Assembly: GCF_022846255.1 (NCBI RefSeq) | Contig: NZ_AP025682.1 | Source of the DNA: Escherichia coli | GTDB taxonomy: Bacteria; Pseudomonadota; Gammaproteobacteria; Enterobacterales; Enterobacteriaceae | Reading direction: 5' to 3' (one strand) | DNA length: 64,000 nucleotides | Shown: positions 62,887 through 64,000 of the stretch, one piece after another | How the letters are laid out: each line of letters begins with the position of its first letter | Position numbering within the stretch: the stretch's first letter is position 1 | The notes under the pieces: generated by a model | The model's input: the letters and a program-made list of their open reading frames with translations, nothing else | Database searches by the model: none | What the model was told of the DNA's origin: nothing | Made by a program: the position numbers and the translations under genes

Positions 62887-63957
62887 TTATTTAATCCGGG
62901 CCATCGCGTTTCTCAGTGCCAAATCTGCCTCTTCCGTTATATCCAGGCTTTTCTGCAATACCGCCTCTGACCGGGTCAGTGCCTGACGTGCTGCCAGCGG
63001 TTTCCGGATATGCTCCATCGCCAGCATCGTGTCTTCATAGCCCTGCTGACGCCAGGCGTCGGTATGTGCCGATGTAAAACTGAGCAGACCGCCGCTGTTG
63101 CCACCATCACCTGCATATTTCAGCCTTTTCCGGGGACGGATCTCAAGGATTGTGGTGTCCGGAAAAGCCTGGCGATCCCATAAAGAACCGTCACTCAGAT
63201 GCGTCACAATCACCATATTGCATCCGGCATCGACCAGAGGCGTCACAGGGGTATTTCCCTGCATATTTCGCCATCCTCCCATACCACCATCACCGAACAT
63301 TGTCCCCTGAACCTCACGGGGACGGAACAGCAGGGGCAGCGCGGCTGACGCAAGCAGAGCCTCTTTCTGCTGTCCGCGGGGCAGGCTCTGGATATGCTGA
63401 AAAACGGCGTTTTTCGTGGTTCCGACACCCAGTTCAGCACGAATGCAGTCAATAATATCCTGCATGCCCCCTTCTGTGGGGTACAGCGACACATACAGCG
63501 GTAGCCCGTCTGCCAGAGCATCAGTATCAAGATAATGATCCATCAGCGCTGTCAGGGGCTCATCTGACAACAACGGCTGAGCCATCAGATTGTCAAACCC
63601 GTTGATTGTCGATATATGGCGAAGAAGCGTCGTAAGCAGTGCTCCTGCACGTCCGGGGATCTGGCAGAGGTTCATTGCCTGGAACAATTTTTTCAGCAAT
63701 GAAAAGTAAACCAATCTGTTTACCGACAGCACCTGATTATTCCCCAGATGATCCCAGAGCGCCTCCAGGCGTACGGCAGCTTCTGACAGATCGGTAGAGG
63801 CCGCGATAATGGCACCATTGAATGCGCCAATGCTGGCCCCTGAAACCATGCTGATCTGTGTACCACACTCTGCCAGTGCCTTAACCACTCCCGCCTGATA
63901 AGCGCCCACCGCCCCGCCACCGGACAGCACCAGCCCCGTTTTCATTTCTGTACTCAT
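62887..63957 (-). CDS. Patatin-like phospholipase (cytoplasmic; no signal peptide)
   Basis: 356 aa; oxyanion-hole GGGxxG (LSGGGAVGAYQAG), nucleophile elbow GxSxG (GASIG) and catalytic Asp in FGDGGM; AGGGGG RBS; ATG overlaps the stop of an upstream gene. Confidence 0.85.
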   Translation of the reverse strand: MSTEMKTGLVLSGGGAVGAYQAGVVKALAECGTQISMVSGASIGAFNGAIIAASTDLSEAAVRLEALWDHLGNNQVLSVNRLVYFSLLKKLFQAMNLCQIPGRAGALLTTLLRHISTINGFDNLMAQPLLSDEPLTALMDHYLDTDALADGLPLYVSLYPTEGGMQDIIDCIRAELGVGTTKNAVFQHIQSLPRGQQKEALLASAALPLLFRPREVQGTMFGDGGMGGWRNMQGNTPVTPLVDAGCNMVIVTHLSDGSLWDRQAFPDTTILEIRPRKRLKYAGDGGNSGGLLSFTSAHTDAWRQQGYEDTMLAMEHIRKPLAARQALTRSEAVLQKSLDITEEADLALRNAMARIK

Positions 63958-64000
63958 GCAGCCCCCTTCTGAAATATTTCATCGACCATACTTTCAGAGA
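63955..64000 (-). CDS. 3' end of an unidentified gene translationally coupled to the patatin gene (runs off the window end)
   Basis: Minus-strand frame ...SESMVDEIFQKGAA* ends on a TGA that overlaps the patatin ATG (ATGA junction); only 14 codons visible. Confidence 0.45.

Follow-up and report, generated by a model that had tools for sequence, protein, structure and literature searches.

A gene for a patatin-like phospholipase lies on the minus strand near one end of the window (the whole 64,000-nt stretch of Escherichia coli DNA analysed here, from contig NZ_AP025682.1 of assembly GCF_022846255.1), and it raises the question of whether the phospholipase belongs to an operon whose earlier part lies beyond the window edge. 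The first-pass annotation held that the closing codons of an upstream frame end on a TGA overlapping the patatin ATG, that patatin is not the first gene of its operon, and that the identity of the upstream partner (for example a nucleotide cyclase, an adaptor or chaperone, or a sensor) would decide between a defence system and an effector. We examined if there is a real gene upstream, what it encodes, and which known systems the operon resembles. The phospholipase proves to be the last member of a mobile three-gene operon (hereafter, the trio); the reading we prefer for it, at a probability of about 0.55 and argued largely by analogy, is that a GTPase/adaptor pair would gate a phospholipase effector.

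Results

A gene beyond the window edge overlaps the patatin gene

When the minus strand was read from 64000 to 63954, two bases (tc) were followed by 14 codons, TCT through GCA, and then by TGA; the frame translates as SESMVDEIFQKGAA* (14 codons + TGA). Its stop forms an ATGA junction with the patatin start just as had been described, except that it reaches 63954, one base past the 63955 noted earlier (Table 1). A frame this short is expected to stay open by chance about half of the time ((61/64)^15 ~0.5) and is not significant by itself, so proof was taken from genomes that continue beyond the window. At least 20 complete E. coli chromosomes match the last 2001 bases of the window at 100% identity, and a match was present in 2619 of 5426 E. 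coli genomes. None of these chromosomes corresponds to the window throughout; the longer region 35459-64000 was 99.7% identical to E. coli SMS-3-5, which differs in the O-antigen region. Past 64000, as read through genomes that are 100% identical over the last 2 kb, the frame continued without an in-frame stop just upstream of the visible codons: in SMS-3-5 it runs to 301 codons, and the annotation there assigns its product to the RdcB family. This product matches the whole of the Pfam YjcZ model (PF13990; E 4.7e-70, positions 1-272 of 272) and has hundreds of homologues. The probability that the 14 edge codons are a chance open frame with no real gene behind them, which the p of ~0.5 in random sequence would have allowed, is negligible against a 301-codon ORF of this kind.

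Table 1. Features at the patatin end of the window, in window coordinates.
Feature	Position	Strand	Basis and remarks
yjcZ/rdcB-like gene, 3' end (14 codons + TGA)	63954..64000	-	Frame read directly; off-window remainder from SMS-3-5
ATGA stop/start overlap, yjcZ-like gene/patatin gene	63954..63957	-	TGA 63956-63954, ATG 63957-63955
Shine-Dalgarno-like AAGGGGG	63962..63968	-	4 nt 5' of patatin ATG, within yjcZ-like CDS; read from sequence, putative function
Patatin-like phospholipase gene, 356 aa, third and last gene of the operon	62887..63957	-	Pfam Patatin E 8e-24
Terminator-like GC-rich hairpin + T-run	62841..62867	-	20 nt past patatin stop; consensus match only

Anatomy of the operon in E. 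coli

The full operon was read in SMS-3-5 (locus L001, for which the window position equals 76001 minus the locus position). The earlier view that patatin is not the first gene proved right, and it is in fact the third: a gene for a dynamin-like GTPase (798 codons, L001 8749-11145) is followed by the yjcZ/rdcB-like gene (906 nt, 301 aa, L001 11142-12047) and then by patatin, with 4-nt overlaps at both junctions, the first being a GTGA in which the yjcZ-like GTG start lies on the dynamin TGA. A non-coding gap of 218 bp precedes the dynamin gene. Terminator-like sites on the operon strand (L001 plus) were found in the promoter region (one site) and directly past patatin (the others), where the hairpin at L001 13134-13150 with its TTTTT (window 62867-62851 plus tail) probably marks the 3' end of the operon. 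With overlapping genes on one strand, no internal terminator and a terminator at the end, the three genes are, by their sequence features, a translationally coupled operon, and the overlapping stop and start codons favour coupled, stoichiometric synthesis of the products.

In SMS-3-5 the operon is part of a CP4-44-type island adjoining yeeA/sbmC/dacD/sbcB, with a yeeP-like GTPase gene on one side and DUF932, antirestriction, yeeS, yeeT, cbeA and cbtA genes on the other; radC genes are also among the contents of the island. No tRNA gene marking an island boundary was present in the 26-kb locus, and the secreted-looking proteins encoded downstream gave no Pfam match. Three GATC-containing palindromes are clustered 5' of the dynamin gene in Escherichia copies; the cluster was dropped as a core part because it is not conserved outside Escherichia, and it is taken to be a lineage-specific regulatory element.

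The three proteins

By its profile match, oxyanion hole, nucleophile and catalytic Asp the last product is a patatin-like phospholipase, and the motifs S12-GGG-x-x-G18, G40-x-S42-x-G44 and D223-G224 were invariant in 30 distinct orthologues. Its best solved relative was PlpD, over the N-terminal 65 aa only. The first product, which matches Pfam Dynamin_N at E 1.6e-17, is by that match and its G1-G4 motifs a dynamin superfamily GTPase: G1 (G75TMKAGKST83), G2 (T102), G3 (D235TPG238) and G4 (N298-K299-x-D301) were invariant in 25 distinct sequences, and T102 is the equivalent of the catalytic T103 of RdcA. Both predicted enzymes, GTPase and lipase, have intact active-site motifs. A sequence scan of the dynamins for a membrane-binding paddle or hydrophobic tip found no 19-residue window with a Kyte-Doolittle mean >1.2, and a hydropathy scan found no transmembrane-grade segment in the dynamin, the YjcZ-like protein or the patatin.

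The YjcZ-like protein was predicted to be all-helical (pLDDT 75, pTM 0.76) and had no informative relative in the PDB by structure or by sequence. It has an invariant patch made up of W162, G165, L183, W185, G186 and G189. A genome-paired AlphaFold concatenate of YjcZ-(GGGGS)6-patatin gave a pTM of 0.54, a score that comes without contacts or PAE; direct binding between YjcZ and patatin is not supported by this model.

The trio is inherited as one unit

A YjcZ alignment scan of GTDB representatives (one genome per species), followed by tblastn, gave 79 loci. Patatin was directly downstream in 28/28 of the island-type loci, with the dynamin gene upstream wherever the contig extends far enough, whereas patatin was within 6 kb in 0/51 of the core loci, i.e., those of the rdcAB type, all of which were from Enterobacteriaceae. 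The non-core sample comprised 28 species-representative genomes, 4 other genomes, 1 plasmid and 6 remote metagenomic members, drawn from Gamma- and Betaproteobacteria, and every locus in it had patatin directly 3' of yjcZ, usually with overlapping junctions. Hosts in the census included Escherichia albertii, Pantoea, Erwinia, Budvicia, several Pseudomonas, Thiodictyon, Allochromatium and Macromonas, as well as Comamonadaceae, Paenacidovorax, Aquaspirillum, Gallionella, Pontibacterium, strain HdN1, Yanghanlia and several MAGs. Many Gammaproteobacteria encode a protein 44-67% identical to the island YjcZ; Pectobacterium, Pseudomonas, Allochromatium and Methylomonas share the order of the trio and its overlapping junctions in four unrelated neighbourhoods. 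An exhaustive profile search of 1.84 billion representatives placed the YjcZ family at 493 clusters (50% identity), most of which resemble the island type more closely than K-12 RdcB, and remote members 23-25% identical to the E. coli protein had all three genes, or as many of them as lay on the contig.

Among 30 distinct trio loci the dynamin-yjcZ junction overlapped in 25 and the yjcZ-patatin junction in 23 (-4 in 13, -8 in 7 and -1 in 3, the rest being separated by at most 18 nt); gaps at all non-overlapping junctions were likewise ≤18 nt, save one of 405 nt. Measured against E. coli, the three proteins diverge in step, their identities being correlated at r = 0.96-0.98. The trio is a single co-inherited evolutionary unit. 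One locus (L089) has no dynamin gene, and there YjcZ is fused to a hydrophobic N-terminal region of the DUF3944 type with patatin still 3'; since this dynamin-less locus keeps both YjcZ and patatin, the two are, as judged from gene content, the invariant pair, and the fusion suggests that the lipase has YjcZ as its partner, with the membrane as the site of action. A fourth core gene was not found, the ORFs between WYL and dynamin genes (see below) not being broadly conserved.

The breadth of hosts also bears on whether the patatin could be a secreted virulence effector of the ExoU/VipD kind, with the upstream proteins serving as chaperone or export helpers. There is weak N-terminal similarity to VipD and ExoU as well as to PlpD, and the E. 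coli locus lies in a pathogenicity-island-like region, but the similarity does not extend past residue ~65, the protein at 356 aa is short and without the extra host-targeting domains of ExoU and VipD, no secretion-system genes adjoined any locus examined, and the trio is found in free-living Methylomonas, Gallionella, Allochromatium and Macromonas. We regard a secreted effector as highly improbable. The identity of the upstream partner, which had been expected to decide between defence and effector, does count against the effector; by itself it does not settle the case for defence.

Relation to the core RdcA/RdcB pair

In K-12, which is not known to carry the trio, rdcA (yjdA/crfC) and rdcB (yjcZ) are arranged as in the trio pair and likewise overlap by 4 nt, with proP next and no patatin. 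The island proteins are full-length homologues of this pair in which the G1 lysine and G2 threonine are kept, with 33% identity for the dynamin (the N-terminal ~56 residues of which do not align with RdcA) and 30% for the YjcZ-like protein; the core version differs in its fixed locus by yjdM and its lack of patatin, whereas the island version is mobile, multi-copy and has patatin 3'. The island dynamin aligned end to end with the NCBIfam CrfC model NF007368 and scored 556 bits against an equivalog cut-off of 1146. The beta-clamp-binding motif of CrfC is an N-terminal 41-QLALP (PMC6374313), which the island dynamins do not have within residues 1-80. The dynamin was thus ruled out as a CrfC/RdcA equivalog (score below cut-off, no clamp motif, separate clade, other locus), and the YjcZ-like protein as an orthologue of K-12 RdcB (30% identity, separate clade, a locus other than yjdM-rdcA-rdcB-proP, patatin 3').

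The same data allow the annotated function to be weighed, namely that the island pair regulates a diguanylate cyclase as RdcA and RdcB regulate DgcE, with patatin as an unrelated passenger. This would agree with the PGAP name of the middle gene ("diguanylate cyclase regulator RdcB family protein"), with its Pfam YjcZ match, with the end-to-end alignment of the dynamin and the CrfC/RdcA model, and with one MAG locus (L026) in which GGDEF cyclase genes lie on both sides of the trio. The low identities and the sub-threshold NCBIfam score speak against it, however, as does the count of GGDEF neighbours (1/13 of the flank-scanned loci); moreover, a patatin that is present in every non-core locus sampled, in overlapping frames and co-diverging with its neighbours, is incompatible with a passenger. 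We consider this reading very unlikely.

Neighbour-joining trees with a midpoint root were prepared for YjcZ (n=45) and for the dynamins (n=36). The core RdcB clade was monophyletic in 40/40 bootstrap replicates and the core RdcA clade in 30/30; in both trees the core clade was nested, on a long stem, among trio-type sequences of Enterobacterales, and the midpoint root never fell between core and trio types. Given this nesting, and given that the core pair is taxonomically narrow where the trio is broad, the trees are most simply read as descent of core rdcAB from the trio, the lipase having been lost and the pair rewired to DgcE.

Distribution, mobility and neighbourhood

The whole 4.7-kb operon was present in 2443/5426 complete E. 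coli genomes (45%; at least 80% coverage and 90% identity). One genome can carry it at as many as five sites, and in this collection 3407 sites were chromosomal vs 3 on plasmids. On the IncFIB plasmid pAW1.7_2 the trio lies between IS5 and IS30. A few E. coli copies are broken by IS3-family elements, and in a few strains an IS insertion lies in the dynamin gene. The operon is horizontally mobile, being carried on islands and plasmids. No copy of the trio and no relative of its patatin was detected among 50,697 phage records.

WYL-domain proteins of the BrxR/CapW type regulate defence systems. WYL-type regulators were found on the same strand within 6 kb of 8 distinct trio loci vs 0/53 core loci; in these 8 loci WYL (+WCX) genes adjoin the trio, and the Escherichia copies differ in being without WYL genes and having the GATC-palindrome cluster instead. 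Neighbours in some loci other than the E. coli island included an integrase, a Cch-like helicase, Fic and an SNF2/PLD-like helicase. Nevertheless, the flank survey of trio loci gave no clear defence-island signal, and most flanks were uninformative: 11/20 of the nearest ORFs matched no family, and some were housekeeping genes (polA, MFS transporter).

The trio has been encountered before. Its operon architecture was already noted in print in January 2026, in an RNA-seq study of E. coli MP1 in which the trio formed one transcription unit whose expression rose strongly in Kapi1 lysogens; this is one study, and its authors warn that multi-mapping reads affected some of the values (PMC12922286). 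The MP1 copies adjoin EcoKI and Druantia (PMC12922286). The genes are also listed in passing in an island of STEC O118 (PMC13182975). A functional test of the trio was not found in the searchable literature, where the mentions are passing ones (PMC12922286, PMC13182975).

Comparison with known defence systems and dynamins

All seven local proteins were scanned with PADLOC v2, with no system-level match; the YjcZ-like protein matched nothing, and the dynamin and patatin gave weak partial matches only. The trio resembles CBASS with CapV in being a multi-gene operon that ends in a patatin-like phospholipase gene, whose product is the probable membrane-degrading output. It differs in having no CD-NTase and no Cap2/Cap3, the upstream partner being a GTPase/adaptor pair and not a generator of a nucleotide signal. 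CBASS was ruled out on the lack of a CD-NTase cyclase among the neighbours and on the CapV model NF041079, to which the patatin scored 19.5 bits against a cut-off of 200. Of the partners first suggested, "nucleotide cyclase" was therefore wrong, as no CD-NTase is present, and "adaptor" and "sensor" came closest. We reject both a CBASS effector and a secreted toxin as readings of the patatin, at the strength given above for the latter.

Eleos ("Dynamins", LeoA/LeoBC) is an anti-phage system of two consecutive dynamin-like genes, and its defence requires the P-loop (Millman et al. 2022, 10.1101/2022.05.11.491447). About 60% of Eleos copies are reported to lie near known defence systems. The trio shares with it a dynamin-superfamily GTPase on islands and a proposed action on membranes; Eleos was ruled out, however, as the trio has a single dynamin and not two, with a weak partial match to LeoBC (E 8.6e-5, residues 29-89) and no match to LeoA. 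The Dynamin_N G domain is also held in common with DynA of B. subtilis and with BDLP of Nostoc (PDB 2J68), the latter being the only solved relative found by sequence; the similarity covers ~50 residues at the P-loop, and the island dynamin is not two-headed and has no paddle-like hydrophobic segment that we could find.

Discussion

Pfiffer et al. (PMC6510439) showed that RdcA, a dynamin-like GTPase, is soluble and forms a tight complex with RdcB; when nucleotide-free it docks on DgcE, a membrane enzyme, at its MASE1 domain and switches it on, GTP being inhibitory (PMC6510439). RdcA/RdcB is the only functional precedent for a GTPase/YjcZ pair, and by this analogy the trio probably works as RdcAB does, with another output enzyme. 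The dynamin-like GTPase would be a sensor or switch that is read by its nucleotide state, YjcZ would be the adaptor joining the dynamin to the lipase, and the patatin would hydrolyse membrane phospholipids once the switch is thrown, the candidate triggers being falling GTP levels or envelope disturbance. The lipase is taken as the regulated output because it, and not a cyclase, is the constant third component.

What such a device would be used for is less firmly indicated. We suggest a conflict or stress module carried on islands and plasmids, for which defence against phages or other mobile elements by membrane damage would be the leading candidate role. A role in conflict or defence is plausible given the mobile contexts, the WYL regulators and the up-regulation in lysogens, and is further favoured by the variable nature of these contexts, the defence-like neighbours, and the precedents for a patatin (CapV of CBASS) and a dynamin (Eleos) in immunity. 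Against defence stand the lack of a PADLOC model, the lack of copies in phages and the heterogeneous flanks; the occurrence of up to five copies per E. coli genome would be unusual for a defence system. A dedicated immune role is put at somewhat below even odds. The most specific version, in which the trio is an unrecognised immune or conflict class whose GTPase senses infection (as a fall in GTP or as envelope damage), whose YjcZ protein licenses a membrane-destroying lipase, and from which RdcA/RdcB descend as a domesticated, lipase-less pair, is more doubtful still, and we offer it tentatively.

The trio might instead serve the membrane itself, the dynamin reshaping or repairing the inner membrane and the patatin supplying or removing lysophospholipids, as cargo that aids the host under envelope stress. 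For LeoABC, a role in vesiculation has reportedly been proposed. Dynamin-like proteins are membrane remodellers, and DynA is described as acting in membrane surveillance in work cited in PMC12922286; the catalytic motifs are all conserved, several loci are in ordinary chromosomal contexts (next to polA, an MFS transporter or TonB receptors), and the trio is absent from phage genomes, all of which would suit a maintenance function. Such a function would fit poorly with the patchy, mobile distribution (islands, IS-flanked plasmid copies, 45% of E. coli), with the recurrent WYL regulators and the toxin-antitoxin and antirestriction neighbours, or with the failure to find a hydrophobic paddle-like segment, and we hold it to be unlikely, though not negligibly so. 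A GTPase/adaptor pair that gates a phospholipase effector is the explanation we prefer for the whole of the observations.

As far as the searchable literature shows, the strict family-wide linkage of YjcZ to patatin, the dynamin-less fusion, the association with WYL regulators, and the proposed derivation of RdcAB as a lipase-less form are new. Since the constant partner of the middle gene is a phospholipase and not a cyclase, the name "diguanylate cyclase regulator" that the NCBI pipeline gives to it is probably misleading within the trio clade. About 45% of complete E. coli genomes carry the trio, often in multiple copies, and the model of a GTPase-gated lipase offers for these a testable candidate for a defence or stress module. 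On the evidence of the trees the RdcA/RdcB pair looks like a derived offshoot, and the core rdcAB of Enterobacteriaceae, as a descendant minus its lipase and rewired to DgcE, would point to a possible evolutionary origin for the DgcE input system; if the trio is moreover an immune system, this would be an instance, in bacteria, of such a module being recruited into second-messenger signalling.

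Genes downstream of patatin and elsewhere in the window

The positions of all features are collected in the table. Two small genes lie just 3' of the patatin terminator, each with a signal-peptide-like N-terminus, and a Pfam search with their two proteins gave no match. The protein of the larger gene has a second, internal signal-peptide-like segment beginning at the ATG at 62556-62554; because of this segment, the start of the gene may be misannotated, or two ORFs may have been fused into one. Further along, the SMS-3-5 annotation gives cbtA as a pseudogene with a frameshift. 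The O-antigen cluster has no counterpart in SMS-3-5 while its flanks are 92-99.7% identical, and the serotype of the window strain therefore differs from that of SMS-3-5. The colanic acid cluster, gnd-ugd-wzzB, the his operon, and yeeZ through sbcB are found elsewhere in the window.

Disrupted and variant copies of the trio

In some E. coli strains (H21, NZ_CP099754.1, and H42, NZ_CP035772.1) the match to the operon of dynamin-like GTPase, YjcZ/RdcB-like and patatin genes (the trio) is broken in two, with an IS3-family transposase gene annotated between the parts, and in NZ_CP035772.1 dynamin is annotated as two genes; the IS3-interrupted operon copies are probably inactivated. The dynamin-less variant (L089), situated immediately 3' of parE/parC, encodes a 532-aa protein in which the YjcZ domain is fused to an N-terminal DUF3944 region that contains long hydrophobic stretches, and patatin follows next with an overlapping junction. 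Among the trio loci, only that of Methylomonas koyamae (L006) has a loose dynamin-yjcZ junction, the spacer of which holds a called 99-aa ORF.

GGDEF diguanylate cyclase genes stand on either side of the trio in one MAG, a single case, intriguing in view of the activation of the diguanylate cyclase DgcE by RdcAB. Proteobacterial genomes are generally rich in GGDEF genes.

Candidate regulatory features near the trio

A WYL-type transcription regulator, in some cases WYL+WCX, was found on the same strand within 6 kb of the trio at eight distinct loci (L004/L011, L010, L014, L017, L025, L030, L090 and L092), and was placed 5' of the dynamin gene in seven of them; near the core rdcAB pair, which is without patatin, no such regulator was seen at any of the 53 loci. 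The ORFs between the WYL and dynamin genes at three unrelated loci share a short stretch (53-71 residues aligned, 30-40% identity); the intervening ORF could be a small accessory gene.

The palindrome cluster at the equivalent SMS-3-5 locus (L001) comprises two copies of ATCGATCGTTA and one of AACGATCGTTT, and its Dam sites are separated by 18 and 13 bp. The 26-kb locus as a whole has four matches to CGATCGTT, against an expectation of 0.7, and every one of them lies inside 39 bp of this cluster. E. albertii keeps the motif, which is absent 5' of the trio in genera other than Escherichia. The palindromes are a candidate operator or Dam-sensitive switch of the Escherichia trio copies.

Features of the window and of related loci (L-numbers denote loci in other genomes; window position = 76001 minus L001 position)
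Feature	Location	Strand	Remark
O-antigen gene cluster, galF to gnd	window, about 25250-35460		
cbtA toxin ORF	window 58467-58730	-	87 aa only
cbeA antitoxin gene	window 58819-59187	-	intact, adjoins cbtA
Small gene	window 61642-62052	-	
Small gene	window 62068-62751	-	227 aa in SMS-3-5 annotation
GATC-containing palindromes, 3 copies	L001 8650-8690		off-window, within 218-bp gap 5' of dynamin gene
Dynamin-yjcZ spacer	L006 6595-7001		405 nt
GGDEF gene	L026 1632-2846	+	
GGDEF gene	L026 8258-9394	-	
Dynamin-less variant	L089 5001-7630		
WYL-dynamin intervening ORFs	L010 2849-3265; L017 3325-3543; L090 1653-1877		70-140 aa
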